IMG/VR virus record: IMGVR_UViG_2690316325_000023
DNA length: 19,876 nt
Reading direction: 5' to 3' (one strand)
Origin: a virus
Taxonomy: Duplodnaviria; Heunggongvirae; Uroviricota; Caudoviricetes
The notes under the pieces are model-generated. The model ran no database searches. It was not told the DNA's origin and worked only from the letters and a program-made list of their open reading frames with translations. The position numbers were made by a program, and so were the translations under genes. This document shows positions 1 to 17,299 of the stretch, piece by piece. The first letter of the stretch is position 1; every line of letters starts with the position of its first letter.

Positions 1-576
1 ATGCATTGCAGCATTATCAACTCGCTCTTCACGATGCCATTTTATAAAAATGAAAGTGGAATCACATTTTTAAATTTTATATGCTTGCTTGTTTTTCTGG
101 TGAAGTTATCCATCATTCACTGTTTTATTATCTTAAGGATGATGGAAATAGTAGGTTTTTTAATGATAATAAAACATATTCTTATGTTATTTAATTACAA
201 ACTTTTTTGATATGATTATGTATCAATACATTATATTACCCGATGTGCTACTGAATTATCGACTATTACTTTAATATTTAGTGATCGTAAACATGGTTCT
301 CCAGATTACTAAATTTCTGGCATCTTACAATATCATCATCTTCAAATAGTTAAATTAAGATTATGGCACTGCCAAAACAGATAAATTGAAGCAGTCTGGT
401 AGATATTGCAGAACAACCTTGATTCCAACGGCGAAATCATGTTTATCCTCCAGGTTGCCGCCCATATGGAGCTGAATATCATTCAGTCCACGCTTGATGA
501 GTCGATATCGCTATATCCATAGACAGGGTAGCTTTTTACACGAGAGTGTCCAGTGTTTTCTGGTAATGACTCCAAC

Positions 577-1080
577 TTACTGATAGTGTTTTATGTTCAG
601 ATAATGCCCGATGACCTTGTCATGCAGCTCCACCGATTTTGAGAACGACAGTGACTTCCGTCCCAGCCTTGCCAGATGTTGTCTCAGATTCAGGTTATGC
701 CGCTCAATTCGCTGAGTGTAACGCTTGCTGATTACGTGCAGCTTTCCCTTCAGGCGGGATTCATACAGCGGCCAGCCATCCGTCATCCATACCACGACCT
801 CAAAGGCCGACAGCAGGCTTAGAAGACGCTCCAGTGTGGCCAGAGTGCGTTCACCGAATACGTGCGCAACAACCGTCTTCCGGAGCCTGTCATACGCGTA
901 AAACAGCCAGCGCTGGCGCGATTTAGCCCCGACGTATCCCCACTGTTCGTCCATTTCCGCGCAGACGATGACGTCACTGCCCGGCTGTATGCGCGAGGTT
1001 ACCGACTGCGGCCTGAGTTTTTTAAATGGCGGAAAATCGTGTTGAGGCCAACGCCCATAATGCGGGCGGTTGCCCGGCAT
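577..1080 (-). CDS. insB: IS1 transposase InsB (expressed as the InsAB' fusion by frameshift)
   Basis: 167-aa translation ending ...[12 protein letters not shown] is the recognisable IS1 InsB sequence; overlaps insA in the -1 frame as in IS1. Confidence 0.9.
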
Positions 1081-1274
1081 CCAACGCCATTCATGGCCAT
1101 ATCAATGATTTTCTGGTGCGTACCGGGTTGAGAAGCGGTGTAAGTGAACTGCAGTTGCCATGTTTTACGGCAGTGAGAGCAGAGATAGCGCTGATGTCCG
1201 GCGGTGCTTTTGCCGTTACGCACCACCCCGTCAGTAGCTGAACAGGAGGGACAGCTGATAGAAACAGAAGCCAC
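999..1274 (-). CDS. insA: IS1 InsA transcriptional repressor / transposase N-terminal part
   Basis: 91-aa translation [23 protein letters not shown]... with zinc-finger Cys pairs is canonical IS1 InsA; starts on GTG 55 nt inside the IS end. Confidence 0.9.
1017..1023 (-). other. IS1 A6C programmed -1 ribosomal frameshift motif (TTAAAAAACTC on the coding strand)
   Basis: Plus-strand gagttttttaa at about 1015-1025 is the reverse complement of the IS1 slippery run, located in the insA/insB overlap. Confidence 0.7.
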
Positions 1275-1349
1275 TGGAGCACCTCAAAAACACCATCATA
1301 CACTAAATCAGTAAGTTGGCAGCATCACCAAACTGTTGAGGTTTCTACT

Positions 1350-2588
1350 TTATAAAGAATTGCTACTTTCTAATTCTGGGTTTCTGGATCTATTTTTACA
1401 ACCTAAATCCGAGTGGTAATTCGGTATATCGTTTGTCAAATCTTGTTTGATAGCATTAATTAAGATCATTATGTCGAATTTATGCATATCGTCGCCCCCT
1501 TCAGACCTTAGATGTTCGGATGTGGTGAGTTGAGTCGCTAATTTGCTGTTTGGCCCCCACACAATATTATTTTCGAATTTTCCTTCATGCATTCTGTTAT
1601 TATATATACAGTATTGTCTAATGTTTAATGCACTGGCTAAATGTACAATGGCAGTATCTACAGTTATAACAAAATCAGCATGGCGAACCAATGCAAATGA
1701 ACATCCGGCATCAGAAAATGGAGATAGAGACACATTATCCAATCCATTGTGATTAATCTGTTTTCCCATATTAAAAACTATTGTGTGATATCCCTTAAGG
1801 TTATTAAGGTAAGCTAGTACTTTGTTTATCTGTTCATCAGATAAGGTTCTGCTATTCTGAGAGCCATAAGGGTTAAATATAACTAATTTTTTGTTTTTCT
1901 TCCTGAATTCATTTGCAACAATATTTGCTGGTTCATATATTTTGTTGTCAAAATTAAGCGCTGCAGCATAATTATTATTTTTTATCTTTAGTAAAGATAA
2001 AACTTTTTTCATTCTTTCAGATGTGTGAATGGAACGATTATCGATTATATTTGTATCAAAAATAGTTACGGCAGGATGATTAAAACAGATAGAGTGTTTA
2101 GGTCTAAGTAAATGTAGTGTTTGCAATCTGGTTATCGCTGTGTTATCAAAATTTGAGAAGTCAACAACAAGATCTACATTCAGTTTTTTTATCTTTGCTT
2201 TTAGTTCGTTAAATTTATTTTTCTCGTAAGATATAAAGGCATCCACGCCAACAATATCAGTAAAGAGGAATGATACTCTTGAAGGTGCTATCACATATAC
2301 CACCATACCGGATTTTTGAAGTTGTTTAATAAACCCTGAGGTAACGATGCCGTCACCAATGGCTTGCATGTGCATGAAAATGCACACTGTTTTATAACTA
2401 TCCGGCTGTAATGATGTTTTCCTTCTGTATCGCATTTTTAGAAATGCCAGTCTGGCCTTCGTCTTTATCTTTTTTGTTTTAATATTTCGCTGTCTGTTAA
2501 GCTGTTTTAATGATGAAATAACATTCATAATGGTACCCTGAAATTCCAAATCACACATGTCATCCGAAATGAGCAGGGTACTATACAA
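1350..2588 (-). CDS. Glycosyltransferase family 9 (ADP-heptose:LPS heptosyltransferase-like) protein; accessory cargo gene
   Basis: The translation carries GT9 signatures: an N-terminal KTVCIFMHMQAIGDGIV segment (compare WaaC MRVLIVKTSSMGDV) and a C-terminal FVITVDTAIVHLASAL segment (compare WaaC FVVSVDTGLSHLTAAL). About 30% GC versus about 55% in the phage genes. The true start is probably an internal Met (for example MRYRRK..., near 2435), since the first ~50 codons look like a low-complexity extension. Confidence 0.6.
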   Translation of the reverse strand: MYSTLLISDDMCDLEFQGTIMNVISSLKQLNRQRNIKTKKIKTKARLAFLKMRYRRKTSLQPDSYKTVCIFMHMQAIGDGIVTSGFIKQLQKSGMVVYVIAPSRVSFLFTDIVGVDAFISYEKNKFNELKAKIKKLNVDLVVDFSNFDNTAITRLQTLHLLRPKHSICFNHPAVTIFDTNIIDNRSIHTSERMKKVLSLLKIKNNNYAAALNFDNKIYEPANIVANEFRKKNKKLVIFNPYGSQNSRTLSDEQINKVLAYLNNLKGYHTIVFNMGKQINHNGLDNVSLSPFSDAGCSFALVRHADFVITVDTAIVHLASALNIRQYCIYNNRMHEGKFENNIVWGPNSKLATQLTTSEHLRSEGGDDMHKFDIMILINAIKQDLTNDIPNYHSDLGCKNRSRNPELESSNSL

Positions 2589-2622
2589 AAAACTGGACTA
2601 CAATGGTTTGAAATGAAAGCCT

Positions 2623-3222
2623 TTATGCTTGTTTACTCCTTGATTCCACTGGGGAAGCTGGCCACTCAATATCCGGTGCTCTTGATGTATCAACACGGTT
2701 CAGCAGCACTCGATACTTCTTCCAGGCTTCCAGCAACGAGATTTCTTCCTCCGTTGCGATTTCCAGATCTACAGCATCCTGAAGTGGCGCAATATGCTCA
2801 CTGGCTACCTGCATCAGGCTGTTTTTTGTTTCTTCTGCCTCCCGGATCCGGAACAGTTTTTCTGCTTCCGTATCCTTCACCCAGGCTGTGCCGTTCCACT
2901 TCTGATATTCCCCTTCCGGCGACGACCAGGTAACATTTTCCGGTAACGGACCGAGTTCAGAAATAAATAACGCGTCGCCGGAAGCCACGTCATAAACCGT
3001 TTTACCACGATGATCTTCAACGAGATGCCAAGACGCCCCATCACTGTTGAAAACAGCCACGAAGCCAGCTGGAATATCTGGCGGAGCAATATCAGTACTA
3101 TTTGCAGGCAGACCTGTATGAGGTGGAATGTATGCATCATCTTCACCAATAAATTCATTGGTTCCGACCAGCAGATTATAAATTTTTATGGTTCGTGGTT
3201 GTTCACTCATTCTGAATGCCAT
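2623..3222 (-). CDS. G: Tail fibre assembly chaperone (P2 gpG-like)
   Basis: Position immediately after tail fibre gene with TAATG stop/start overlap at 3220-3224; size and N-terminal sequence consistent with P2 G family. Confidence 0.8.
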
Positions 3223-5333
3223 TATGCAAGCCTCACAATATAGTTAAATGCGATGTTTTTTACGGTGTTTTCCGCGTTGCCATAAGCGGCAATGGTAATG
3301 GTGTGTGTGTGCGAACCAATAGCGAGCGTATGTGTATGCGCACCTATTGCTACTGTGTGAGTATGAGCTCCTGCGCTTAATACGCGATTACTTGCTGCCT
3401 TGCTTGTGTTAGTTGCATGCATTCCACCACCGGTACCGGGAGTTTCTGCGTATGCTGAAGTATTGTTGTAAGCAAAGTTGTGTGTATGTGCTCCGGTGTT
3501 ATTTGTGGATTTAGTTCCGTAATCAAACGACGATGTGGTTTTCGTCCCCAAATCCGTACTGGATGCGCTGGCGCTGTGGGTGTGCGATTTAATGCCGTCC
3601 TGTTCCTGAGACAATACGGCCCGACCACTGGCAGGTTTGCCCTTAATCGTCCAGCCACGCATATCAGGGATCACGCCTGACGGATAAGCGACTGCAAGTT
3701 TCGGGTAGGCAGATTTGTCAAAAGTCTGCCCCTGCATCAGGGCATAACCAGACGGAACGGTATCCGATGGCCACGGGATTGGTGCGCCAGGCGGATAAAA
3801 CTGCTCTGATGGCGTATAGAGTGAATAAACTGTACCGTCCGTTAACCCTTCCGGCTTATTAGCAGAATATGCTGGTGACGTATGAATCGTCACGCTGGCA
3901 TTACTGGTATAATCCCATTGAATATTTACACCAGTCGCATAATTTCCGATTGCAACGTAAATATCGTAAGTATCACCAGATGTATTGACCCAGGCAAAAT
4001 TTGTAAACCCTGCCGATGTGCGCTGCCATAAAGCACCAGTAATCCCCTTCGGATTACCATTACCTGCACGCAAAACAATTTCAGATATACCTGCCTGTTG
4101 AGGTGAACCGACGTTATATCCAGCGCCACCAATCAACGTAATTGAAACAACAGAACTCGCCTGTGGCATGGTTACCGTTGCTAATTTGAACCAACCAGCA
4201 CCACCTCTGAATGACATTGTTGTTGAGTTAAGCGTACCAATATCTTTCGGTGTCAGTGTTATATCCGCTGAAAGCGCCTTACCATTCACCTTACGGGCAG
4301 AAGGTACCCGACCATTCGCATTGTCATTAGCTGCTTTCACTGCTTTCGGTGTCGCAGCAAGCGTTTCAGATGCGCTGTTAGTCGCGCTGCTTAGCTGGAC
4401 AATTCCTTTTTGTGCTGTCGTAGCGTCCTGAGCGGTATATTTCCCGTTAGCAAGGTCATAGGCTGCCTTTACCGACTTTGGCGTTGCCGCCAGCGTTTCA
4501 GACGTGCTGTTGGTGGCGCTACTGAGCTGGACAAGGCCTTTCCGCGCTGTGGTGGCATCCTGCGCAGTATATTTCCCGTTAGCAAGGTCATATGCTGCCT
4601 TTACCGCCATTGGTGTTGCCGCCAGCGTTTCTGAATCGCTGTTGGTGGCGCTACTGAGCTGGACAAGTCCTTTCCGCGCTGTAGTGGCGTCCTGTGCGGT
4701 ATATTTCCCGTTAGCAAGGTCATAGGCTGCCTTGACCGCTTTCGGCGTTGCGGCCAGTGCTTCAGACGTGCTGTTGGTGGCGCTACTGAGTTGAACAAAG
4801 CCTTTTGCAGTCAGCGAGGCGTCCGGGTGACGTCGTGACTGTTCATGCTCTTTCAGTTTGTCATCCACGTAATCCACTGTGGCCATCACCATGGTGTTAT
4901 CCACGGTAAGCGCCACGGTGGCCGTGCTGGATACGGTCAGAATGGTGCGAAATGTTTGTGCACGTCCGGACCCTTCGGCAACGGTTGGTTTGTAACTTTC
5001 GGCAGTATTGCCCACCGCGATTAAATCGCCGTGCTCATCAAATACACCAATTTCCCGGATCCAGAATCCGCCCGTTTCAGGAGGAATAACCAGCTCTGCA
5101 ATAATGCGGTTCTGATGTGTTGCGTCCAGGATGACGCGATTAACAGTGTGTCGCCACACCTCATGCACAAGACGGGTCTGCTTACTGTCTGGCGAGGGCA
5201 ACGTGCCGCCGCCGTCACCCACGGCCATGTGAGTCAGGCGGACCGGTTTACCATCTGGTGTGGCTGCCTGCGCTAATTTTTTTTCACCCGTATCGGTGAT
5301 AACGGTTTTAAATTTTCGTGTTGTGGTACTCAT
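3222..5333 (-). CDS. H: Tail fibre protein (P2 gpH-like) with internal 44-aa tandem repeats and a His-rich C-terminal tip
   Basis: 703 aa; N-terminal ~170 aa typical of P2 H. Four (3.7) tandem 44-aa repeats [44 protein letters not shown]. C-terminus has GAHTHT / SHTHT His-x-His repeats typical of fibre tips. Confidence 0.9.
4314..4802 (-). repeat. 132-bp in-frame tandem repeat array (about 3.7 copies) inside tail fibre gene H
   Basis: The motif cccgttagcaaggtcata recurs at about 4443, 4575 and 4707 (period 132 bp), matching the 44-aa protein repeat. Confidence 0.85.
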
Positions 5334-5335
5334 GC

Positions 5336-5866
5336 TTAATCGTCCGGATAAATGGTAATGACTTCACCGTCGTAAGTTGCTGCCGCCGCGAAAATATCCC
5401 CCGGAATTTCCTGAATGATATTCAGCCCTGTCATGTGGCGGCTGACCGGGCGGGCATCAGCAATCAACCGCTCCATTTCCAGATACATTTCCTCCGTCAC
5501 GCCACTGTCCAGCGTGCCGACTTCAACGGTAAATGTTCCCGGTTCTCCGCCGAACTCCCACCACTCAGACACGCGAATGAGGTATCCCAGCGGCTCAATG
5601 GCCCGGCGCAGTGCGCTGATGGTTCCTTTGTGTCGGTGTATCAGCCATGCATCACGAATCACCTGTCGCTTTGTCTCTTCCGGCCAGTTGCGATCCCAGC
5701 GGTCAACGGAAAATGCCCAGGCGAGATAAGGCAGCAGATGCACCGGGCAGGTGTCCGGTGACCACAGCGTGTTGAGGTCTACCGGGATGTCTGTAATGCG
5801 CGCTCCGACAGCTTCGGCGCAACGCATGAAATTGCTGGCTGATGGCGGTAACAGTGAATTACTCAT
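5336..5866 (-). CDS. I: Baseplate/tail protein (P2 gpI-like)
   Basis: Translation from the internal Met (MSNSLLPP...) gives 176 aa, the P2 gpI length; gene order J-I-H. The ORF track's longer 187-aa version (to 5899) would overlap J more extensively. Confidence 0.8.
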
Positions 5867-6755
5867 TACGCCCACCTTCGCTGATGGTGAATGACTCACA
5901 GCGCGCCGCCTGTATGTCGCTGATGGCCATATTCTGTGTGGGTTCGATTATCTCCACGCGTTGCACACCGTGCACATGCAGTGCGGCAGCAATGGCGGAC
6001 AACGCCACGTCCTGACCGATAAGCCCCTGCTCAGCCAGCCACTTCCTGAACGACGATTCAGCTGCGGCCAGAATAGGTTCGGATTCCGGGCCGGGGTAAA
6101 AGTACAGTTTTGCATTCAGCCGCCATGTCACGATTCTGGCGCTCTGTACCGTCAGGCGGTCGGCCACCGGGCGGGTATCCTCTGCATTCAGAACGGCGCG
6201 AACGGTATTAAGCAACGCCTCCGTTGCTGTGCCGTCGCCTTCAGTGGACAGGATGGAAACCGTCACATTGGCCGGAGACGGACTGATAGCCCGCGCATCA
6301 CGCACCAGACCGCTGGCGCTGCGGGCAAAATACTCGTATGCACCTGACGGGCCAGCAACACTCAGGCCGTCGTACGCCCGCTGCGCCCGCAGTCTAAGCG
6401 AGGTGTCGCTCTCCATCACCGCGTCGGTGGTATCCGTTGCCGGAGTGATAACCAGGCGCTTTGTGTTCATATTGCCCGCGAGGTTGTCCAGGTCTGTCCC
6501 GGCGCTGTGGCTTAACATGCAGGCGCGTGCACCCTCATTGACCCGCTGGCGTAACAGCATTTCACGAAACGCTGTTGTCTGGGCGATAACGTTAAGGGGT
6601 TCCGATTCCAGCTCCAGCGCGGCGGAAACGGCTTCACGCTGTTCGGCGGGATAGGACGCAATCATCATGGCTTTTGTGTCAGCCAGAATTGCTTCAAAGT
6701 CAGGCTCCGCGATGATGGCGGGTTCCGGTAACTGGGAAAGGTCAACGGCGGGCAT
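5859..6755 (-). CDS. J: Baseplate assembly protein J (P2 gpJ-like)
   Basis: 298 aa, position between W and I, sequence character of the P2 J family. Confidence 0.88.
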   Translation of the reverse strand: MPAVDLSQLPEPAIIAEPDFEAILADTKAMMIASYPAEQREAVSAALELESEPLNVIAQTTAFREMLLRQRVNEGARACMLSHSAGTDLDNLAGNMNTKRLVITPATDTTDAVMESDTSLRLRAQRAYDGLSVAGPSGAYEYFARSASGLVRDARAISPSPANVTVSILSTEGDGTATEALLNTVRAVLNAEDTRPVADRLTVQSARIVTWRLNAKLYFYPGPESEPILAAAESSFRKWLAEQGLIGQDVALSAIAAALHVHGVQRVEIIEPTQNMAISDIQAARCESFTISEGGRNE

Positions 6756-6758
6756 GAT

Positions 6759-7109
6759 TTACTCCCTCAGCGTGATGGTTAATTCAACATTCTGCATGGT
6801 CTGCATGACAGTGCCCGACAGCGTCACCCCGGCGCGGCCTCCTGCCTTCCAGACAACGTCGATGGCGTCCAGGGCAATGCGGGGTTCCCATCGTGTCAGT
6901 GCAATCACGGCAGCACTCATGCATTGCAGACGCGTGGTGTTATTCATGGGTTCGTCAATCAAATCAGGCAAAAGGCTGCCATATTCCCGTCGCATAACCC
7001 GGCTTGCCAGCGGGGTGGTCAGGATGTCCCTGACTGACTGTTTCAGGTGCTCCATATCGTTCAGGTTTCCCGTCCCGTCCGGGTTCATTCCTGTGTAGCG
7101 GGTTGTCAC
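6759..7109 (-). CDS. W: Baseplate protein W (gpW/gp25 family)
   Basis: 116 aa; P2 gpW is 115 aa; sits between V and J. Confidence 0.88.
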   Translation of the reverse strand: MTTRYTGMNPDGTGNLNDMEHLKQSVRDILTTPLASRVMRREYGSLLPDLIDEPMNNTTRLQCMSAAVIALTRWEPRIALDAIDVVWKAGGRAGVTLSGTVMQTMQNVELTITLRE

Positions 7110-7687
7110 TGCGGGCCTCCTGTCGAATCGCTGCCACCTTTAACGCCACCGTGCTTATGTGTATGCACTGTGATGCCGTTTGAGGTGAAATTGCCGCCGC
7201 TGTGCGTGATATTGCCGCTCATCTTTCCCCCTTTTGTGACGTCAAGCGTCGCCGTTCTCAGAAGGTTTGTGCATTCCACGACGGGCGTGTCCAGTGTCAC
7301 GCTGACGGATGCCTGCAGGCTGGCTGTTTTCATGCCGCTGGCGCTCAGTGCGCCTGCGTCCGCGTCGTAGCGGAACACCGCGCCATCCGGCGCGCTGACC
7401 ACGATTTCTTTCAGGCTTTTGCCGGGGGCCGGACTGGCATCACTCCACAGGCTGCCAATTATCATGGCGGTTTCCGGGTTGCCGCCGATGCAGGCAATGA
7501 CCACCTGTTCGCCGGGTGATGGCGGCAGCCACACATTGAAGGCTCCCGCGCGCGTGGTGTTCCAGCGTAACCAGCCTGTTTCCAGTTCGCCGCTGCGAAC
7601 GCGCACGCACCAGGACTTCTCATCAACTTCAGAGATGATCCCGGTGCGGATGACATTGCTCAGCAGTCGCATGAGTTCTGCGCTCAC
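7106..7687 (-). CDS. V: Baseplate central spike protein V (P2 gpV-like)
   Basis: 193 aa with Gly-rich C-terminus; 4-nt overlaps with S and W as in P2 late operons. Confidence 0.88.
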   Translation of the reverse strand: MSAELMRLLSNVIRTGIISEVDEKSWCVRVRSGELETGWLRWNTTRAGAFNVWLPPSPGEQVVIACIGGNPETAMIIGSLWSDASPAPGKSLKEIVVSAPDGAVFRYDADAGALSASGMKTASLQASVSVTLDTPVVECTNLLRTATLDVTKGGKMSGNITHSGGNFTSNGITVHTHKHGGVKGGSDSTGGPQ

Positions 7688-8328
7688 CGTACAGCCTCCG
7701 CAATCCGGCCCAGCACCGTGTTATAAATCAGGCGCTCATCTGCCTGGCTGATACCCAGCAGCTCACGTACCGGGTAATCGGTGAAAATGCCCGGCGCAAC
7801 CTGATCGCGCTCACCGAACTGATGAACGCGTGCAATACGTGCGGCCACGCCGCTGTAACCCACCGTCACACCGGAAGCATCTGCACGGGTTTTCAGGTAG
7901 CGGGCGGTGCGCAGTTTTACGAACATGGGGACGCGCCTGGTGCTGTCCTGGTTGATGCGCCGGGTGCGTATTTCCAGAAAACGGTCGATGTCATCCCGGT
8001 AAAACGTGCGGATATTGTTTTTATCCTCATCCCACCCGGTAATGGTTCGCCCGTATTTCCCCGTGTCGTGATGCCAGTTTTTCAGCGTGCGTGCTTCGTT
8101 ATTCCAGATAAAGCGAATGCGTTCCTGTATCCGGGTTACGCGGCGTCTGCGTGGTGTCCACGCGGTCCCGTCCGGCGCTTTCTGTGACCGGATACGCGCC
8201 TGCTGGGCGCGGCGTAAATCCTGTGCCAGCTTTCTGGCGATGTTATTGATGGCCTGCTGATTCAGGCTGTCGCGGATGGCCTCAAAGGTTTCATCCACGC
8301 GGGTGAATGCCTTATCCATCGCTTTCAC
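7684..8328 (-). CDS. S: Tail completion / virion morphogenesis protein (P2 gpS-like), longer than P2 S
   Basis: Position between R and V. At 214 aa it is longer than the ~150 aa I recall for P2 S, so identity rests mainly on synteny. Confidence 0.6.
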   Translation of the reverse strand: MKAMDKAFTRVDETFEAIRDSLNQQAINNIARKLAQDLRRAQQARIRSQKAPDGTAWTPRRRRVTRIQERIRFIWNNEARTLKNWHHDTGKYGRTITGWDEDKNNIRTFYRDDIDRFLEIRTRRINQDSTRRVPMFVKLRTARYLKTRADASGVTVGYSGVAARIARVHQFGERDQVAPGIFTDYPVRELLGISQADERLIYNTVLGRIAEAVR

Positions 8329-8779
8329 CCCACGTCACATCCTGGAATACATGCGACCAGTCGCCTTCGGAAGAGGGCAGACGGGGTTTTGGCTCCGGCA
8401 GGTGTTCTGCCTGCGGTGTGCCCTGACTGTTGCGCGTGATGCGAACGCGTTCCCGCAGGGGGAGCGTAAACAGGAGGTCGGCGCTGTCATCGTCATTGAT
8501 AACGGCGGAGAATTTGATGTCCTGATTACGCTCAGGGTTGAGCAGCAACTGTGGCTGATTTTCGGATAACCACGCCAGCAGCGGCAGCGTGAGGTCATCC
8601 AGCTCCCCGGCGTAATCCATGACAAACATCACCATCTGATAGCGGTAAACAAACGAGGGCGTTTCTCCGGTCGTTTCAATGTTGCCGCTCTCCACGAAAA
8701 TGGTGAATTTTTCCGGGTTGGCCTGACACCATCGGCATGAACGGGTCATGGCTTCACGCAGGGAATCAGTTTTCAGCAT
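8312..8779 (-). CDS. R: Tail completion protein R (P2 gpR-like)
   Basis: 155 aa, same length as P2 gpR; MLKTDSLR... N-terminus and LLAWL.ENQP motif resemble P2 R. Confidence 0.8.
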   Translation of the reverse strand: MLKTDSLREAMTRSCRWCQANPEKFTIFVESGNIETTGETPSFVYRYQMVMFVMDYAGELDDLTLPLLAWLSENQPQLLLNPERNQDIKFSAVINDDDSADLLFTLPLRERVRITRNSQGTPQAEHLPEPKPRLPSSEGDWSHVFQDVTWGESDG

Positions 8780-9086
8780 GGTTGTTGTCCTCGTTGTTCA
8801 GTCGTTGCAGCCTGCGCTGTTCCAGTAATTCAATGGCCCGTTTATCCGCGTTACAGGTTTCCAGTGCATCCAGAAGGCGGTCGCCCCATATACCGAGATT
8901 TCCCCATGTGGGAGTGTCAGGGAAGGGGGGAGGCGTTACCGGTATGGTCAGCGTCTGCGGTATAAGCCGGACTGACGGCGCTGGCCGTGGCGCGTTCTGC
9001 GTGCCTGCGCAACCTGTCAGTAAAACGAGCGTCAGGCAAAGCGTGGGCGCATTCATCTTTTGCAATATCGTTGCGTAGCTGTTCAC
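8766..9086 (-). CDS. lysC: Outer-membrane spanin (Rz1 / LysC-like lipoprotein), overlapped with lysB
   Basis: Signal peptide with lipobox LLTGC followed by a proline-rich mature region; starts inside the i-spanin gene in another frame and extends past it. Confidence 0.75.
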   Translation of the reverse strand: MNSYATILQKMNAPTLCLTLVLLTGCAGTQNAPRPAPSVRLIPQTLTIPVTPPPFPDTPTWGNLGIWGDRLLDALETCNADKRAIELLEQRRLQRLNNEDNNHAEN

Positions 9087-9324
9087 GTCTGGCCTCTCCG
9101 TCCTGATTGCGTTGCTGATTTTCCGCGCGGAGTTGTGCCAGCACCTGCTGCATATCCTGTACCCCGGCGCTGATGATATTCAGGGTGTCGACGGTACTTT
9201 TCAGGGTGCTGGCCTGCGCTTCGTTTCTGGCGTTCTCCCGGCCCAGTGACCACGACAGACGCATGGATGCTCCCCAGGCGGCAATCAGAAGAAAAGCGAC
9301 GCCCAGCGTGGGCCAGAGCTTCAT
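8917..9324 (-). CDS. lysB: Inner-membrane spanin (Rz / LysB-like)
   Basis: From the internal Met MKLWPTLGVAFLLIAAWG: N-terminal TM helix then a charged, coiled-coil-like region. Its ATG overlaps the endolysin TGA (ATGA at 9321-9324). The ORF track's upstream extension is probably not translated. Confidence 0.75.
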   Translation of the reverse strand: MKLWPTLGVAFLLIAAWGASMRLSWSLGRENARNEAQASTLKSTVDTLNIISAGVQDMQQVLAQLRAENQQRNQDGEARREQLRNDIAKDECAHALPDARFTDRLRRHAERATASAVSPAYTADADHTGNASPLP

Positions 9325-9713
9325 GCCGGATAAACTCCGTGCGGTAACTGAAAATGCGGTCCGTCTTTCAGGGTCTTCCAGTCGCCGCCCCATTCCACCG
9401 GAATATTCAGTTCCCGGCTGGCCTGTCTGAATGCTGCTGCGATTTTTTCGTACAGCGGCCATTCCCATGACACCTGGCTGCCGACATAAGCCACAACATC
9501 CACGGCATGCCCCGTAAGGTGGCGGCTGTTCATGGTCTGGCTCTTACCCGTGGCCACAAGTTGCTTCTGGCGGTAACGGCTGCGCAACCCTTCGGTGATA
9601 CCAAAATCCACTTCCGAAATTTCCAGTGCCCGTCGGGTCACTTTCACCAGCTCAGGATTTACGCCCTGCAAATTCTTTTCGCTCCGGCTGCTGAATTTAA
9701 ATGTGTTGCTCAT
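9321..9713 (-). CDS. Endolysin, peptidase M15 family (L-alanyl-D-glutamate peptidase-like)
   Basis: 130 aa with the zinc-peptidase motif SRHLTGHAVD and a downstream EWGGDW...H segment; located between holin and spanins. Confidence 0.8.
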   Translation of the reverse strand: MSNTFKFSSRSEKNLQGVNPELVKVTRRALEISEVDFGITEGLRSRYRQKQLVATGKSQTMNSRHLTGHAVDVVAYVGSQVSWEWPLYEKIAAAFRQASRELNIPVEWGGDWKTLKDGPHFQLPHGVYPA

Positions 9714-10033
9714 TCGTCCTTCTCCTTCACCCTGCGATTAAAGGCCGCAATAACCTTGTCGCGTGCTTTCTCTGCCCCCATAAAACCGATTGATGCGCCG
9801 ATAAACGTCACGGCATCTTCAGGAAAACCGAAGAAGCGCAACGACCCGGCCACGGCCATGGCGAGAACGCCGCACGCCAGCGATCCCGTTACGGTCTGAA
9901 CCAGTGTTCGTCCGTCATAAAGACTCATCAGCGCGGAAATGCTGACCGCCGCGCCTGCTGCATACACCGTTGGCAGGTGGTCAAAGAGCCATGCAATAAC
10001 CTGCTCTGTGATCCCTGTTTGAATGGTGTTCAC
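9710..10033 (-). CDS. Holin (three predicted TM segments)
   Basis: Probable GTG start with GGGGGGAG Shine-Dalgarno 5 nt upstream, directly after the X stop. The 107-aa product has three hydrophobic stretches and a charged C-terminal tail (RRVKEKDE). The ORF track's 180-aa version overlaps X and is unlikely. Confidence 0.65.
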   Translation of the reverse strand: MNTIQTGITEQVIAWLFDHLPTVYAAGAAVSISALMSLYDGRTLVQTVTGSLACGVLAMAVAGSLRFFGFPEDAVTFIGASIGFMGAEKARDKVIAAFNRRVKEKDE

Positions 10034-10035
10034 TG

Positions 10036-10236
10036 CTACTCCCCCCACAACTGAATCATTTCTCGTTTCTTCTTCTCCGGCTCCGGCATCTCCACGTCCT
10101 GCCCGGCGTCCAGAAATACCTGCTGACAGAGTCCGGGGTTGGCATCCAGCACCTTTTCGGTGACGCCCTGCGTCGTGCCGTAGTACCGGAAACAGAGCGA
10201 ATCCACGGTGTCGCCTTCCAGTGCCTTCACTTTCAT
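10036..10236 (-). CDS. X: Tail protein X (P2 gpX-like)
   Basis: From the internal Met (MKVKALEGDTVDSLCFRYYG...) gives 66 aa resembling P2 X; ATG overlaps the L stop (TGATG). Confidence 0.8.
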   Translation of the reverse strand: MKVKALEGDTVDSLCFRYYGTTQGVTEKVLDANPGLCQQVFLDAGQDVEMPEPEKKKREMIQLWGE

Positions 10237-10739
10237 CAGCACAACTCCGCAAAGATTCGCGGGCGGCACAGAATGTCAGAGATGGCCCAGCTCACATCGC
10301 GCCACAAATCTGATGTCTGTATATCCAGTGCGTCCGCCCGGCGGTCGCCCTTGTCCGTTGTGTCCGCATCGCGGTAACGCTCCAGAATCAGGGCGCGTGT
10401 GGCGGTATAAACAGCATTGCGCCAGTGCCAGAGATTGACGCTTTCTCCGTTAATTACGGGTGCCGGAACATCGGCCAGCGTCTGATGGCCAGCCGCCTGC
10501 TGTTCCTGCTGCCATGCTTCCAGCTCGCGGGTAACGTGAGCCACCGCCCCGGTGGCGGTATGCAGCAGGCGGGAGGTGGTCACACGGCCCGGCAGTCGTA
10601 CCGCCAGACGCAGCTCACGCAGCACAATATCCGGCCAGAATGCGCCCGCTGAAATACGGGTATCACCATCATCGGTATCGGTGATGTCGTCCTCTGCGGG
10701 TCCGGGGTTGGTTCTGGCAACCATACTCATGGGGTTCAC
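10236..10739 (-). CDS. L: Head completion protein L (P2 gpL-like)
   Basis: 167 aa; position after the terminase small subunit M; size matches P2 L (169 aa). Confidence 0.85.
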   Translation of the reverse strand: MNPMSMVARTNPGPAEDDITDTDDGDTRISAGAFWPDIVLRELRLAVRLPGRVTTSRLLHTATGAVAHVTRELEAWQQEQQAAGHQTLADVPAPVINGESVNLWHWRNAVYTATRALILERYRDADTTDKGDRRADALDIQTSDLWRDVSWAISDILCRPRIFAELC

Positions 10740-10743
10740 TCCT

Positions 10744-10816
10744 GAAAAAAATCGGGCGGTGGGTGCGCGGTGTAAACGGTCACGGAGTCAAACCGGAACA
10801 CCGCGCACGCCGCCCG
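10744..10816 (-). terminator. Terminator/attenuator-like interrupted hairpin plus U7 tract between M and L
   Basis: Plus-strand tcgggcggtgggtgcgcggtg (about 10751-10771) pairs with caccgcgcacgccgcccg (about 10799-10816); on the minus strand the stem is followed by TTTTTTT (plus-strand A7 at about 10744-10750) and then the L Shine-Dalgarno AGGAG. Confidence 0.35.
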
Positions 10817-10832
10817 CTGACGGGGTCAGTCG

Positions 10833-11633
10833 TTAACCGCGCTTCGCCTTCTGCGTCGCGGTGGTTTTTCGTGTTGCAGGCTTCCGCGTTGTCTTTTTAC
10901 TTTTGCTGCTTTCGTCCTGCGCCTGCTGTGCGCTGGCGTCTTCTGGTGCGGCTGCGGAATCGGCTTTTTTCAGGGCGCGGGAAAGGGTTGCAATCTCGCG
11001 TTTCACACCTGCGTTCGGGTTCAGGTGCATTGCTTCGCGCAGCAGCTTCAGTGACAGTGCCATGCTGTCCGCATCGCTCAGGCCACGGCGGGCAAAGGCG
11101 CACGCCTTGCATAATTTGGCGCGCACTTCGTCCGGCATGTCCTGGTCGGTGACAATCTCCCGGAGGGTATCCAGTGGTTCGATAAAGGCGGACAAATCCG
11201 CGTCGGCATCCGTCCCGGCCTGCGTCAGTACCGGGTTGCAGATTTCTTCGGTCAGCACTGTGGCAGCAGTACGGCCAAAGTTATCCGGCATAATGAGGTT
11301 ATGACGGACCACATACGCACCAATACGCAACGCCAGCGGAAGATCGCCGCAGTCAATCGCCCACACCATCAGCGTGGCAATCACTTCATCCTGCTGCCCG
11401 CCGTCAGCCTCCAGCGTTCCCTCAATCCAGCCGGAAAAATCCGGCAACAACTCTTTTTTGATGGCGGCTTTCGCGCTTCTGGCCTGTACGCCCTTAAGCC
11501 GGGCCTGTGCCAGACGCAGACGATACAGCACCTCTTCATGCGCGGTACGCGCGGCGTGGTCCACGCCTTCATTCGCCCGGCCTGCGCGCTGTGCCATCAC
11601 GTTCTGCCAGTGTTGCTGTGCAGGAGTAATCAT
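10833..11633 (-). CDS. M: Terminase small (endonuclease) subunit M (P2 gpM-like)
   Basis: 266 aa, basic Lys/Arg-rich C-terminal tail; position between N and L. Confidence 0.88.
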   Translation of the reverse strand: MITPAQQHWQNVMAQRAGRANEGVDHAARTAHEEVLYRLRLAQARLKGVQARSAKAAIKKELLPDFSGWIEGTLEADGGQQDEVIATLMVWAIDCGDLPLALRIGAYVVRHNLIMPDNFGRTAATVLTEEICNPVLTQAGTDADADLSAFIEPLDTLREIVTDQDMPDEVRAKLCKACAFARRGLSDADSMALSLKLLREAMHLNPNAGVKREIATLSRALKKADSAAAPEDASAQQAQDESSKSKKTTRKPATRKTTATQKAKRG

Positions 11634-11678
11634 TGTTTCTCTCCGTTACAGGCGGGCATGATGCCCGCCGTGAGTTGA

Positions 11679-12731
11679 TTAGCTGTCGGCGAACTTCAGG
11701 CCAGTGACCATCGCGCACTTGCCATAGTCTTCAACGACATAAGCGTCATTGATGGACTGGTAGGTGGCGATGCGGTTGTATTCCGGCTCGTCTTTCATCA
11801 GGCGACGCATTGAACCTTTCTGCCAGTAAATCGACAGGTTGTTGAACGAGGTGATCAGCATCGTTGCATCCGGGAAGAACGGCGCAAGGAACACACCCAG
11901 CCCGCCAATGGTGCGCGATGACAGGATGAGCTGCCCGGCGAGTAATTCCGCATTGGGATTCTGGCCGCTGATGCTGTTCAGCACGGGCAGACGCAGCGAG
12001 TTAAACAGGTTGCGCCCCATAATCACCACGAGGTCGTCAGCTTCCTTGTGCCATTCATCCAGCAGGGATGAGCGTGCGTCCTGAACCAGTGCATCAGCAT
12101 TCGCATACTTACCCGCGTGCGCCACGGTGTTGTCCATGTTGCGGGAGGTCAGCGTCACGTCATTCATTACGCGCGCGCTGGCATTGGTTCTGATGTGCTC
12201 CAGCCACCCCACGTTAACGTCCTGAAGCAGCTTGTTGGTGCTGAAGTTGGATTTTTCCGCGTGTGACGTGCCGTTAAAGCCGATCATGATGCGGTCAAGC
12301 GCCACCTGTCGGGCAATCTGTGCGCTGATGCGGGTCTGGAAGTCATTGTGCGCCGCCCAGGCATCAAGCTGCGGATACGAAATAAACGTGTCGTAGTTCA
12401 CCTGCTCACACTGGTACTGACGGGACTTCAGGTCGACAGCGTTAATCGGGTTGCGGCGATCTGTGCCGTCATAACTGGTATTTGTGCGCGCAATCGGCCC
12501 GGTGGTGTCCATGAGGACTTTTTCGCCTTTCTGGTCGGTCACACCGATCACGTTAATTTTTTTTGTAAGTTCGGTGCTATCCTTTGAGGCGTTTTCAAAA
12601 CGCTGCTGCACCGCGGGTTCCACGGTAAATCGCGATACCAGTCCAGAAACCGGGATATTGTTAATCGACGCCTGTCGCGTCATGTAGCAGCCCAGCTTGT
12701 TACGGGCATTATCTGACATCACCAGATTCAT
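11679..12731 (-). CDS. N: Major capsid protein N (P2 gpN-like)
   Basis: 350 aa; motifs KFTVEP, ARVM, MLITSFNNLSIYW and YVVEDY align with what I recall of P2 gpN. Confidence 0.93.
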   Translation of the reverse strand: MNLVMSDNARNKLGCYMTRQASINNIPVSGLVSRFTVEPAVQQRFENASKDSTELTKKINVIGVTDQKGEKVLMDTTGPIARTNTSYDGTDRRNPINAVDLKSRQYQCEQVNYDTFISYPQLDAWAAHNDFQTRISAQIARQVALDRIMIGFNGTSHAEKSNFSTNKLLQDVNVGWLEHIRTNASARVMNDVTLTSRNMDNTVAHAGKYANADALVQDARSSLLDEWHKEADDLVVIMGRNLFNSLRLPVLNSISGQNPNAELLAGQLILSSRTIGGLGVFLAPFFPDATMLITSFNNLSIYWQKGSMRRLMKDEPEYNRIATYQSINDAYVVEDYGKCAMVTGLKFADS

Positions 12732-12754
12732 AAAAAATTTGCTCCTTTGTCTTA

Positions 12755-13624
12755 TCAGAAGTCAGCCAGCTGGTCGGAGGCTGCGCCCGTTGCGGTGAAC
12801 CGGTTCTGCGGATCGCCGTCCTGCGTGCGCAGTTTTTCCTTCAGTGCTGTCAGCTCTGTGGTCAGCGAAGTGATTTTCTGGCTGTCCTGCTGATGGTGGG
12901 TTTCCAGTGCATTAAAACGGTCGATAATGTCGGCCTGTGATGTTGCGACACCTTCCACCGCTTCCTGAATACGGGAGAAACTGGCGTCATCCGCTTTGCG
13001 GCCACGGCCAATAATCCCCATAACGCGGTTAAACCACTGGGTGCCTTCTTCCTGACGTTGTTCGGTGAGTTCGATAAGTTCTGACTCCATAGCGGCGGTA
13101 AACATCGCCACGTCTCCCTGCTGACAGTTGAATGTCATCAGTTGCATACGTTGTTGTGCCGCAAAGGCCAGACGTTCCGTGCCCAGGCTGGCGGGGGTGT
13201 CGGTCATTGCCAGCCCGCGCAGGTAAGGGCCTCCCGTGATGGTTGACTGTGGTTCCAGCTCAATACTGGAGTAAATTTTTTTACCATCGTTAAGCAGGGA
13301 CATCATGCGAGCGGTCGGCTCAATTTCGGCATACAGTGCCGTGCGGCCTGCCAGCGGGCCATCGGTTATGTCTTCGGTGCTCAACCCCACAACATCGCCC
13401 ATAGCGGAAAACTCGCTGCCGGGGAGTGGTGACAGGATGTGCTCAATATTCACACGTGCACCATAAACGGACGGGTTATAACTGGTGGCGGCAGCTTTCA
13501 GCATGTCGCCGTTGATTTCGCGCCCGTCTGCCGTCACACCGGAGACAGCCACGCGAAACTTTTTGCGGGATGTCTTTTTTTCATTAGTCATAGTTTTTGC
13601 CCCTCTGACTGGTTCTTCAGTCAT
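12755..13624 (-). CDS. O: Capsid scaffolding protein O (P2 gpO-like)
   Basis: 289 aa; first gene of the leftward late operon, divergent from P; AAGGAG Shine-Dalgarno of N directly downstream. Confidence 0.9.
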   Translation of the reverse strand: MTEEPVRGAKTMTNEKKTSRKKFRVAVSGVTADGREINGDMLKAAATSYNPSVYGARVNIEHILSPLPGSEFSAMGDVVGLSTEDITDGPLAGRTALYAEIEPTARMMSLLNDGKKIYSSIELEPQSTITGGPYLRGLAMTDTPASLGTERLAFAAQQRMQLMTFNCQQGDVAMFTAAMESELIELTEQRQEEGTQWFNRVMGIIGRGRKADDASFSRIQEAVEGVATSQADIIDRFNALETHHQQDSQKITSLTTELTALKEKLRTQDGDPQNRFTATGAASDQLADF

Positions 13625-13745
13625 GATGGCAAAGCGTAACAGGCTGATACAAAGGGCTTTTGTTGTAAGAAAACGGCCAGAACAGGGGGTTAAGGAGAAC
13701 GGTTTCGCGCGCGGGTAATCTTCCTGTAATTACTCAGGGGGAGCA
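13625..13745. promoter_or_regulatory. Divergent late-operon control region between O and P (expected activator-dependent late promoters)
   Basis: 121-bp intergenic region between divergent O and P, as in P2 where Ogr-dependent promoters sit here. Contains a TGTTGT...ACA partial dyad (about 13661-13684) and the GGGGGAG Shine-Dalgarno of P. No promoter mapped with certainty. Confidence 0.4.
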
Positions 13746-15497
13746 ATGATTCAGGACGCTTTTGTGCGCCAGCGTGCGCGGCAACTTTACTGGCAGGGTT
13801 ATCCGCCCGCAGAAATATCACGTCTGATGGGAATAAACCCGAACACGATTTATGCGTGGAAAAAACGCGACCAGTGGGATGAAACACCACCCGTGCAGCG
13901 TGTCACGCAGTCCATCGATGCGCGCCTCATCCAGCTTACTGAAAAACAGAATAAAACAGGTGGTGACTTCAAGGAAATAGACCTGCTGACCCGGCAGCTT
14001 AAAAAACTGCATGATGGCCAGCCGGATGCGACGGCCACAGGAAAGAAAAGCCGGGCGAAAAAACTCAAAAATCATTTCACGCCGGAACAGATTGCCGCAC
14101 TGCGGGAAAAAATCATCAGCAGGCTGGAGTGGCATCAGCGGGGCTGGTTTGACTCTCTGACCCTTTGCAGGGAAGCCGGGATACGTAACAGGATGATCCT
14201 GAAATCCCGACAGATTGGAGCGACATGGTATTTTGCACAGGAAGCACTGCTGATGGCGCTGCGTGACGATGTGGCGCAACCTTACCAGCGTAACCAGATT
14301 TTTTTGTCTGCGTCGCGTCGTCAGGCGTTCCAGTTTAAAAGCATTATTCAGAAGGCTGCATCTGAAGTTGATGTGGAGCTGAAAGGGGGCGATAAAATCA
14401 TCCTCTCCAACGGCGCAGAGCTGCATTTTCTTGGTACTTCTGCTGCGACGGCACAGTCCTACACGGGCAATTTTTATTTTGATGAATTTTTCTGGGTCAG
14501 TCGCTTTGCTGAACTGCGCAAGGTGGCTGGCGCTATGGCAACCCTCAGCGGACTGCGGCGCACCTACTTCTCCACGCCATCCACCGAAACGCACGAGGCA
14601 TACGCCTACTGGAACGGCGACCGCTGGAACGAGAAAAAGGCCACGCATAAACGCCAGCGTTTTTCTGTTGACTGGAAAACGCTGCATAACGGGCTTATCT
14701 GCCCTGACCGGACGTGGCGGCAAATTGTCACGCTGGAAGATGTGGTTAATCACGGCTGGAAACACACCGATATCGACGAAATTCGTGATGAAAACACCGA
14801 AGACGAGTTCCTCAATCTCTATATGTGTGAGTTTGTCCGCGAAGGGGAATCGGCATTTAACCTGAATATCCTGATTGGCTGCGGTGTTGACGGATACGAC
14901 GACTGGAAAGACTGGAAACCTTTTGCTCCCCGCCCGATGGGGAATCGTCCGGTATGGATTGGGTATGACGCAAACGGCAGCAGTGGCAACGGCGACAGCG
15001 GCGCTGTGTCCGTGGTGGTTCCTCCGGCTGTTCCTGGTGGCCGTTTTCGAACGGTGGAGACGCGACGCGTTCAGGGGCTGGAGTTTGAAGAACAGGCCAG
15101 AGTCATTGAAGAGTTCACGTGTCGCTACAACGTGGAACACATCGGCATTGATGTGACGGGCGGGAACGGGGAGGCTGTTTATCAGATAGTGAAGCGGTTT
15201 TTCCCTGCTGCTATTCCGTACACCTTCACGCTGTCATCCAAACGGTCGCTGGTACTGAAAATGCTGCAAATAATGCGTGCCGGACGGTGGGAATACGATC
15301 GCGCCGAACGCGAGCTGGTCGCGGCCTTTAACGCCGTGCGTAAGGTGAAAACACCGGGCGGCTTTATCACTTACGAAACGGACCGCGCGAGGGGGATCAG
15401 CCACGGCGACCTTGCGTGGGCAACCATGCTTGCTGTCATTAACGAACCAATTGGCGGCGAAGGAGAAAACGAGCGTTTCACGGTTATGGAGTTCTGA
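13746..15497 (+). CDS. P: Terminase large (ATPase) subunit P (P2 gpP-like)
   Basis: 583 aa; motifs LKSRQIGATWYFA, GAELHFLGTSA, TYFSTPST and DLAWA match the P2 terminase ATPase. Confidence 0.93.
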   Translation: MIQDAFVRQRARQLYWQGYPPAEISRLMGINPNTIYAWKKRDQWDETPPVQRVTQSIDARLIQLTEKQNKTGGDFKEIDLLTRQLKKLHDGQPDATATGKKSRAKKLKNHFTPEQIAALREKIISRLEWHQRGWFDSLTLCREAGIRNRMILKSRQIGATWYFAQEALLMALRDDVAQPYQRNQIFLSASRRQAFQFKSIIQKAASEVDVELKGGDKIILSNGAELHFLGTSAATAQSYTGNFYFDEFFWVSRFAELRKVAGAMATLSGLRRTYFSTPSTETHEAYAYWNGDRWNEKKATHKRQRFSVDWKTLHNGLICPDRTWRQIVTLEDVVNHGWKHTDIDEIRDENTEDEFLNLYMCEFVREGESAFNLNILIGCGVDGYDDWKDWKPFAPRPMGNRPVWIGYDANGSSGNGDSGAVSVVVPPAVPGGRFRTVETRRVQGLEFEEQARVIEEFTCRYNVEHIGIDVTGGNGEAVYQIVKRFFPAAIPYTFTLSSKRSLVLKMLQIMRAGRWEYDRAERELVAAFNAVRKVKTPGGFITYETDRARGISHGDLAWATMLAVINEPIGGEGENERFTVMEF

Positions 15498-16543
15498 TGA
15501 GCAGAAAAAATAAAAAAGTGCGCATGAGTTCACGCATTGATCTCGCTGATGCGCTCAGGAAAGAATCATCGCTCAGTGCATTCACATTTGATGGTCCTTA
15601 TCGCCTGACCGGGCATGACCTGCTGGACAATATGTACTGTGCTGATAACGGGCGGTGGTATGAAACCCCGGTGGACTGGTACGGTCTGGCAAGAGCCGCC
15701 CGGCAAACGTCCTGGCATCAGTCTGCGCTTTACTTTAAGCGCAATGTATTGCTCGGTTGCTACATCCCGCACCCGCTGCTTTCCCGGCAGGATTTCTCGG
15801 CGCTGGCGCTGGACTGGTTTGTGTTCGGTAACGCATTCCTTGAGCTTCGGAGTAATATGCTCGGCGAACCACTTAAATTACGGCACGCACTGGCGAAATA
15901 CGTGCGACGCGGAAGCGATCTTGAATCATGGTGGTATGTGCAGGATGGCAAGGACGCGTTTCAGTTTCGCCCTGGCAAAGTGTGCCACCTGATGAATCCG
16001 GACATTAACCAGGAAATTTACGGCATGCCGGAATATCTTGGCGCATTACTCTCGGCCAGCCTGTCTCATTCGGCGGACATGTTCAGAAAACTGTATTACG
16101 ACAACGGATCCCACGCCGGGTGCATCATCTACATCGGTGCAGCGCAGGTAAACCGCGAAAGCATGGACTCCCTGAAAGAAACGCTACAGGGGGCACGTGG
16201 TGGTGGTGCGTTTAAAAACGTGCTCATTCATGCGCCCAACGGGGGCAAAGAGGGGGTGCAAATTTTGCCGTTCCAGCAGATCACCGCAAAGGATGAGTTC
16301 ATGAATGTTAAGGCGGCATCCCGTGATGATGTGCTGGCTGCGCACCGCGTTCCGCCGCAACTGATGGGGGCGATGCCGGGCGAAAAAAGTGCGTTTGGTG
16401 ATGTGGAGAAGGCCGCGCGGGTTTACGCAATTAACGAGCTGATGCCCGTCATGGAGGCCATGAAGCACATCAATGACTGGCTTGGCGAAGAGGTGATCCG
16501 CTTTAACCCTTACGCACTGTTAGATACCCAGCCCACATCCTGA
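15497..16543 (+). CDS. Q: Portal protein Q (P2 gpQ-like)
   Basis: 348 aa (P2 Q is 344 aa); start overlaps the P stop; last gene before the probable cos region. Confidence 0.88.
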   Translation: MSRKNKKVRMSSRIDLADALRKESSLSAFTFDGPYRLTGHDLLDNMYCADNGRWYETPVDWYGLARAARQTSWHQSALYFKRNVLLGCYIPHPLLSRQDFSALALDWFVFGNAFLELRSNMLGEPLKLRHALAKYVRRGSDLESWWYVQDGKDAFQFRPGKVCHLMNPDINQEIYGMPEYLGALLSASLSHSADMFRKLYYDNGSHAGCIIYIGAAQVNRESMDSLKETLQGARGGGAFKNVLIHAPNGGKEGVQILPFQQITAKDEFMNVKAASRDDVLAAHRVPPQLMGAMPGEKSAFGDVEKAARVYAINELMPVMEAMKHINDWLGEEVIRFNPYALLDTQPTS

Positions 16544-16569
16544 CGCGCTTCGCTTGTCTGCTGCTTCGC

Positions 16570-16594
16570 CGGGGCATAAAAAATTTATGCCCCG
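16570..16594. terminator. Perfect 11-bp-stem hairpin (cggggcataaa-aaa-tttatgccccg) just downstream of Q
   Basis: Palindrome read directly, 26 nt after the Q stop. No clean U tract follows, so its role as a terminator is uncertain; it could belong to the cos/packaging region. Confidence 0.3.
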
Positions 16595-16993
16595 ACTCTC
16601 CAGCTCCTGTATCAGTCAGATAATTTCACGACGCTTTCCTGCTTATTGCCATCATCGACGGTCAGATTCTTACGCAATCCCACTGCGCTGACTGCATGTT
16701 CTCGCCGCCTCAGTGCGATTTTGACGGCCTTACCTTTCACCCCATCAAACCAGAATCCCTCACGTATTTTTCACGCTCAGCGTGAGAAATACGGCCATTC
16801 TGTTGTATCTCTGCGACATCGTTCAGGGAATGCTATTTACCCCCTGAAACGCGGGCTGTTCCCCCGTCACCTGCGCGCAGAAAAAACGCGTTTTTTTGTG
16901 CACGTACGGATCCTTGACGGATCCAGCCACCACGCGGGCCGGAAGTACAAAAAGTCGTTCAAAAAAATTGTGCAAACTTGTGCACTATCGTGC

Positions 16994-17020
16994 AAACAAA
17001 AAAAGCGCCTTATCGGCGCT
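16994..17020 (-). terminator. Rho-independent terminator of the 89-aa gene
   Basis: Minus-strand hairpin AAGCGCC-GAUAA-GGCGCUU followed by a U7 tract (plus-strand aaaaaaa at about 16995-17001), about 10 nt after the ORF stop. Confidence 0.55.
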
Positions 17021-17029
17021 TCAAAAGTA

Positions 17030-17299
17030 TCAATTGTTGCTGTGTATTAATCGCCAACCACGAACATATGCTTCATAGGCATCTCTGTGCCTTACAGTTC
17101 CAGCCTGGCTAAACGGAATGTTAGCTAAAACTAAATCATTCTGAGCCATAGCGCGTCCTTCAAGCGCATCTTTTATGCCTAGCTCAAAAGCACAGGCAGC
17201 GCATTTGTGCCGACCTTCTTGTCCTTGATATTCAGGGAGAGACAGAAATGTTGGATTATAACGATGAGGGTTCTTGCAAATACCTGTTTTAGCCCGCAC
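17030..17299 (-). CDS. Hypothetical 89-aa protein, unknown function
   Basis: GTG start with GAGG Shine-Dalgarno 8 nt upstream and a strong terminator downstream. Preceded by a structured leader. No family recognised by eye. Confidence 0.45.
   Translation of the reverse strand: MRAKTGICKNPHRYNPTFLSLPEYQGQEGRHKCAACAFELGIKDALEGRAMAQNDLVLANIPFSQAGTVRHRDAYEAYVRGWRLIHSNN

Follow-up and report, generated by a model that had tools for sequence, protein, structure and literature searches.

An IS1 copy without a flanking duplication joins the sucD-cydA spacer of E. coli to part of a P88-like prophage, probably as a result of an inversion across the terminus

An intact IS1 between core chromosome and prophage

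The stretch of DNA considered here (the window; 19,876 nucleotides, IMG/VR virus record IMGVR_UViG_2690316325_000023) is made up of two arms that meet at an insertion sequence. The left arm belongs to the core chromosome of E. coli, the right arm is the interior of a prophage, and a terminal piece of another insertion sequence closes the window on the right. The features are the following.

1-561, plus strand: left arm, E. coli core chromosome, sucD-cydA spacer
553-561: GTGTTTTCT, the 9 nt adjoining the IRR end of IS1, presumably one copy of the target duplication at the chromosomal site
562-1329 (768 bp), minus strand: complete IS1, recognized by its sequence, inverted repeats and Pfam matches
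562-584: IRR of IS1
577-1080, minus strand: insB' frame (DDE)
999-1274, minus strand: insA, intact, encoding the 91-aa InsA (zinc ribbon and HTH)
1017-1023: A6C motif (AAAAAAC) for -1 frameshifting, within the insA/insB' overlap
1307-1329: IRL of IS1
1330-1338: AAACTGTTG, one copy of the 9-bp target duplication from the insertion into the prophage
1330-19825, minus strand: right arm, interior of a P88-like prophage (Peduoviridae, Xuanwuvirus-type)
1350-2528, minus strand: GT9 cargo gene for a 392-aa glycosyltransferase family 9 protein, in the slot between G and the tail module
19826-19876: terminal 51 bp of IS100 (IS21 family), istB side, in phage gene A, with the break at 19825/19826

The element that separates the two arms belongs fully to the IS1 family and is normal and intact. 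Members of this family are about 768 bp long, possess imperfect inverted repeats of about 23-30 bp that start with GGT(A/G)ATG, and produce target duplications of 8-9 bp (PMC12428005). The window copy, which the sequence-only reading had correctly recognized as a complete IS1, measures exactly 768 bp; its terminal inverted repeats (GGTAATGACTCCAACTTACTGAT and GGTGATGCTGCCAACTTACTGAT) match at 19 of 23 positions, insA is intact, and the DDE frame follows via the A6C frameshift. In Pfam searches, its proteins matched Zn_ribbon_InsA (3e-21), HTH_Tnp_IS1 (1.7e-30) and DDE_Tnp_IS1 (3e-75), the scores of PF03811, PF12759 and PF03400 on the IS1 frames being all far above the cut-offs. The one family feature that is missing at this copy, as assembled, is the flanking duplication of 8-9 bp. 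When set against the IS1 elements of E. coli and Shigella, the window copy shows the same 768 bp, the same imperfect repeats of about 23 bp, the same insA/insB' frame with the A6C -1 frameshift, and also a 9-bp duplication (AAACTGTTG) within AT-rich DNA. The element itself is no different; only the context is, in that the copies of the duplication no longer flank it.

IS1 copies that are 100% identical to the one in the window are found in many E. coli chromosomes and plasmids, and 1692 records contain a copy of at least 99% identity. The left 300 bp of the element differ from IS1A; a hybrid IS1, as a sign of homologous recombination, was considered and rejected, the whole element being 100% identical to a widespread variant. 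Because this variant is widespread and 100% identical copies are common, the mechanism that produced the junction cannot be read from the sequence of IS1.

The left arm had been taken for material of an accessory slot or a prophage; it is instead DNA of the sucD-cydA spacer. At positions 1-47 it contains the 3' end of a frameshifted gene for a TPR-repeat protein, and the remainder of the 561 nucleotides is non-coding. This flank is 100% identical to the corresponding DNA of strain Trh52 and six other complete genomes, and is present in 1107 of the 5426 complete E. coli genomes, every time in the chromosome and in the gene context sucA-sucB-sucC-sucD-TPR...cydAB-tolQRA. In genomes free of this IS1, the flank goes on as AACGGCTGGCAATC..., with cydA 817 bp further. 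The sucD-cydA spacer is a variable chromosomal slot: K-12 holds mngR-mngA-mngB there (extracted K-12 region 5154-10612), and in their place the TPR-repeat gene is found in the present lineage and in about 20% of the complete genomes; it is frameshifted both in the window lineage and in strain Trh52. The sharp boundary in base composition that had been described next to the cargo gene is real but largely trivial, as an IS1 of 52-60% GC is inserted between two AT-rich stretches, the left spacer (25-45%) and the GT9 gene (27-38%).

The right arm reads rightward, on the minus strand, through GT9, G, H, I, J, W, V, S, R, the lysis genes, X, L, M, N and O; P and Q follow on the plus strand, and then parR/parM and the 3' part of the replication gene A. 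It differs from an IS1-free prophage of GCA_049894145.1 by 1 mismatch in 14,004 bp, and is covered to 96%, at 96% identity, by the flk/pdxB prophage of strain M9. The gene order is that of phage P88 (Xuanwuvirus) and of the P2-like prophages at flk/pdxB. The prophage belongs to the P2 family, within which it is P88-like (Xuanwuvirus) rather than P2 in the strict sense. In P88-like phages the tail module from FI to U natively sits between gene D and the slot next to G, on the strand opposite to H-G and D, and the notion that this module was inverted in the present lineage relative to P2 was accordingly dropped; no inverted repeats flanking the FI-U module were found. Within the tail-fibre gene H, off-diagonal BLAST hits revealed internal repeats of about 132 bp and about 84% identity (4323-4805).

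Both the window prophage and the P88-like phages have a variable slot between G and U. In phage P88 this slot is occupied by a DNA invertase and an invertible tail-fibre segment (P88 region 2324-4472), whereas here it holds the low-GC GT9 gene, next to the tail-fibre assembly gene G. The GT9 protein is annotated in relatives as WP_001100987.1 and matches the Pfam family Glyco_transf_9 with 26.9 bits (cut-off 22). Its stop codon occupies 1350-1352, and the end of IS1 is 20 bp away, precisely as had been noted from the sequence; the gene is intact despite IS1 and IS100.

In contrast to phage P88, the window prophage is broken by both of these elements. The last 51 bp of the window match no phage A allele; they were found in 2955 genomes, in up to 25 places each, and occur beside istB of IS100 in other genomes. 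IS100 has disrupted the prophage a second time, independently of IS1, and is likely the reason why both draft contigs stop at gene A. At its other end, the prophage is incomplete as well: in relatives free of IS1, a stretch of 96 bp separates GT9 from the series U, T, E', E, FII, FI, D, ogr, hok and attR, none of which is present in the window.

The separated copies of the 9-bp duplication

The two 9-nt sequences that adjoin IS1, GTGTTTTCT on the left and AAACTGTTG on the right, agree at 2 of 9 positions. A re-inspection for duplications of 7-14 nt, in which each end of IS1 was allowed to move by up to 3 nt, revealed no imperfect or odd-length duplication, the best agreement being 5 of 7; thus, the reported absence of a target-site duplication stands and, for the sequence as assembled, marks an IS1-associated rearrangement rather than a simple insertion. 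Each of the two sequences makes sense when considered separately. In IS1-free genomes GTGTTTTCT is present as a single copy at the same position, and it presumably represents one half of the target duplication made at the chromosomal site. Similarly, IS1-free prophages read ...GTAGGTCCTGATA AAACTGTTG AGGTTTC, with a single copy of AAACTGTTG. In these relatives each flank runs on into different DNA, and none shows the window's junction simply lacking IS1.

Where, then, is the second copy of AAACTGTTG? It was found when the tape-measure protein of the IS1-free relative was used to locate the missing arm of the prophage in a sister assembly, GCA_001284645.2. A 284-kb contig of this assembly has the order fabB-yfcJ-flk-VasI-Zn ribbon-hok-ogr-340aa-D-FI-FII-E-E'-T-U-AAACTGTTG|IS1 and breaks off within an IS1 of the predicted orientation. 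At the nucleotide level, the sister contig CYEP01000004.1 reads ...GTAGGTCCTGATA AAACTGTTG|GGTAATGACTCC and continues with 346 bp that show no difference from the window's IS1. The second copy of AAACTGTTG is, therefore, on the U/flk arm and adjoins the same end of IS1; as the sister contig carries it beside IS1, the two copies of AAACTGTTG lie on different junctions. Three more assemblies have tail-arm contigs that resemble the one in GCA_001284645.2. Over 8,117 bp the U/flk arm shows 100% identity to the IS1-free prophage; its identity to the flk/pdxB prophage remnant of strain H1 is 99.9%. The attachment site of the prophage was ambiguous at first, with flk/pdxB and ihfA/btuC as the two candidates; the continuation of the sister contig into flk-yfcJ-fabB settled the matter, and the prophage of this lineage is integrated between flk and pdxB.

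These data bear directly on two suggestions of the sequence-only reading. It had supposed that material next to IS1 was deleted; the tail module U, T, E', E, FII, FI, D and ogr is, however, present in the sister assembly, linked to flk-yfcJ-fabB. It had also recommended a search for the missing segment or a reciprocal junction, and this search was rewarded with one half of such a junction, U-AAACTGTTG|IS1, at the contig end in GCA_001284645.2. The other half, in which IS1 would be followed by GTGTTTTCT and cydA, was not found: the pattern IS1-GTGTTTTCT-AACGGC toward cydA had no exact match among species-representative genomes and JGI metagenomes. The junction IS1-GTGTTTTCT-AACGGCTGG is predicted both by an inversion and by an assembly misjoin, but not by a deletion. 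We conclude that IS1 made a normal 9-bp duplication of AAACTGTTG upon its insertion into the prophage, the copies of which were later separated in the genome or wrongly joined in the assembly.

The nature of the assemblies is essential for choosing between these two possibilities. The window matches contig CYEA01000009.1 (189.5 kb) of GCA_001283905.2 with 0 mismatches in 15,333 bp, and the order of genes on this contig is sucA-sucB-sucC-sucD-TPR|IS1|GT9-G-H.... Another assembly of the same project, GCA_001277715.1, contains an 18.7-kb contig with the same IS1/GT9 junction, which ends 104 bp inside IS1. All the assemblies with these junctions are short-read drafts, the sister assemblies all break within IS1, and the entire element is crossed by a single contig only. 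Furthermore, the contig with the separated copy of the duplication comes from a sister assembly and not demonstrably from the source isolate. Neither of the two IS1 junctions of the window occurs in the 5,426 complete E. coli genomes. The sequence-only reading passed over this aspect of the locus: the source is a short-read draft, in which a misjoin through IS1 would give the same picture.

Origin of the junction

A comparison with the K-12 map provides the geometry of the junction. In K-12, sucD (764-765 kb) and cydA (771.5 kb) are on the forward strand; the reverse strand carries pdxB (2.4367-2.4379 Mb), and flk is located at 2.438 Mb. The joined sites correspond to about 0.77 and 2.44 Mb on this map and are about 1.67-1.7 Mb apart. 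Along the plus strand of the window, the direction from sucD to cydA is the forward direction of K-12, and the subsequent direction from GT9 via int to pdxB is the reverse one, so that distant loci are joined head-to-head, in opposite orientation. Such a join is of the inversion type and, by implication, the two IS1 copies had opposite orientations. This separation of about 1.67 Mb in opposite orientation, which indicates an inversion, had likewise escaped the sequence-only reading.

The position of the two sites relative to the terminus is also informative. With dif at 1,590,750 in K-12, the chromosomal site is about 820 kb from it and the prophage site about 847 kb on the other side, to which some 26 kb of the prophage have to be added, although these are K-12 coordinates and strain-specific islands could shift the distances by 100-200 kb. 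As the two sites are nearly equidistant from dif, an inversion of about 1.7 Mb would leave the replichores balanced, which is expected of inversions that persist (PMC4173774). By our own estimate, two unrelated insertion sites would mirror each other about dif, in inverted orientation, with a chance of about 1-4%.

In our opinion, these observations are probably explained by an inversion that spanned the terminus, covered about 1.7 Mb and took place between two IS1 copies of opposite orientation. At the start, two IS1 copies would have been present in inverted orientation, one in the sucD-cydA spacer and one in the flk/pdxB prophage. The arrangement could be reached in two ways: both copies could have been inserted independently, with a subsequent homologous recombination between them, or a single IS1 could have attacked the second site in a one-step intramolecular replicative transposition. 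By either route, the exchange between the IS1 copies would have inverted the intervening 1.7 Mb or so, with the replication terminus inside, and each IS1 at a junction would have been left with halves of two different 9-bp target duplications, one old and one new. The halves of the prophage would have ended up at opposite ends of the inverted segment, the other half (U through FI, D and ogr) still being joined to flk. The split prophage would be unable to excise or to be packaged as a unit, its gene A being additionally cut by IS100. Under this scenario, the link through IS1 in the draft contig would be physically real and the fourth half-junction should exist.

The products of homologous recombination and of replicative transposition are identical, and either route may have acted. 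Both are well documented for IS1 and other E. coli IS elements (PMC12428005 and references therein; PMC4173774; PMC5009759). In the E. coli long-term evolution experiment, about 70% of the large rearrangements go back to recombination between copies of an IS (PMC4173774; see also PMC5009759). The inversions described in that experiment (PMC4173774) and in mutation-accumulation lines (PMC5009759) resemble the proposed one in that the IS at the junction lacks direct repeats of its own, the exchange involves inverted copies, the inverted segment spans the terminus, and the replichores are balanced. The present case differs in that one breakpoint is inside a prophage, which is split as well, and in that the linkage comes from one draft contig and not from an optical map or long reads. 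As for the alternative route, deletion and inversion products of intramolecular replicative transposition of IS1 are attributed, in the account given in PMC12428005, to the work of Turlan and Chandler (1995); this process predicts exactly the product that is observed, an IS1 with the old flank at one end and a fresh 9-bp copy of the target at the other, and also a second, inverted IS1 with reciprocal flanks.

The event class, an IS-mediated inversion, is already known, and no new mechanism is involved. An IS copy without direct repeats of its own is, on a more general note, a reliable flag for a structural rearrangement or a draft misjoin. If the junction is real, the lineage has a balanced, terminus-spanning inversion of about 1.7 Mb that splits a P88-like prophage, and the GT9 cargo is stranded in the chromosome within an immobile remnant. 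The splitting of a prophage by such an event is a textbook route of prophage domestication. One could go further and envisage the inverted IS1 pair as a reversible flip-flop of the 1.7-Mb segment that is polymorphic within the clone. We regard this extension as highly speculative and quite improbable; it would explain why, of several sister assemblies, only one resolves a pairing; with each flip the prophage would be split or made whole again and so be switched between a locked and an excisable state, and read-through from GT9 into IS1 would, perhaps, be altered.

The principal alternative is an artefact of assembly, which we consider unlikely but deserving of attention. In this case there would have been two ordinary IS1 insertions, the one in the sucD-cydA spacer flanked by GTGTTTTCT on either side and the one 20 bp beyond GT9 flanked by AAACTGTTG on either side, and the assembler or gap-filler would have joined the wrong arms via the identical 768-bp repeat. 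A misjoin of this kind would fit an Illumina-type draft (contigs of 189 kb, 284 kb and 18.7 kb) whose sister assemblies break in IS1, the more so as the IS1 seen on both arms is identical and the variant is multicopy in E. coli. It predicts the three observed half-junctions equally well, and the absence of the junction from complete genomes is in line with it. However, nothing in a misjoin would favour two sites that are placed symmetrically about dif to within a few tens of kilobases and in an inversion-compatible orientation, and neither of the links that the two ordinary insertions would require, U-IS1-GT9 and sucD-IS1-cydA, was found in an assembly. The inversion is favoured over the misjoin because, with a misjoin, the mirror position about dif and the fitting orientation would have to coincide by chance (about 1-4%, by our estimate), whereas a real inversion leads one to expect them.

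Much less probable is a transposition of a prophage fragment, in which the 18.5-kb block from IS1 to gene A would have entered the sucD-cydA spacer by a composite, one-ended or otherwise IS-mediated event. The block does have mobile elements at both ends (IS1 left, IS100 right), and in strain 19SZHZ869Rt an IS1-GT9-'G-IS1 block is found at an unrelated locus (see below). Nevertheless, IS1 and IS100 belong to different families and do not make up a joint composite transposon, IS100 may simply have inserted into gene A, and the separated copy of AAACTGTTG on the flk arm fits an inversion, whereas moving a copy of the block would not split the duplication. The least probable explanation, an IS1 adjacent deletion that removed the tail module and the attR end between the old site and a nearby target, would also leave IS1 without a flanking duplication and has a true counterpart in the near-identical prophage of strain H1 (int'-IS1-'H), but it is excluded by the backbone distance of about 1.67 Mb, an interval that contains the terminus and many essential genes, by the head-to-head strands, a product that no deletion can yield, and by the retention of the tail module, attached in the sister assemblies to an IS1 with the second copy of AAACTGTTG. 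Accordingly, of the two origins that had been proposed from the sequence, IS-mediated adjacent deletion and recombination between two IS1 copies, the former has to be abandoned, and the latter is one of the two mechanisms that agree with the data.

GT9-bearing prophages and their IS1 elements in other strains

The AT-rich surroundings of GT9 have been hit by IS1 repeatedly and independently. Strain 19SZHZ869Rt appeared at first to share the IS1/GT9 junction of the window, an assignment that was rejected since its IS1 is 64 bp further off and represents an independent insertion. In this strain (extracted region 8004-11100) a second, inverted IS1 resides in G, yielding the IS1-GT9-'G-IS1 block, which has been relocated to an unrelated locus between truncated ynbA and ydbA. 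The IS1 of strain STEC409 (extracted region 9437-10206) was also examined as a candidate for the same junction and discarded, as it lies within gene G. In strain H1 (extracted region 16494-18128) the near-identical prophage has undergone the internal deletion int'-IS1-'H.

Prophages with GT9 are also found at a second chromosomal site, between ihfA and btuC, in strains 165, TH9F11 and MS6193. These share an internal deletion, by which a partial gene I is fused to a partial capsid gene, and are defective remnants.
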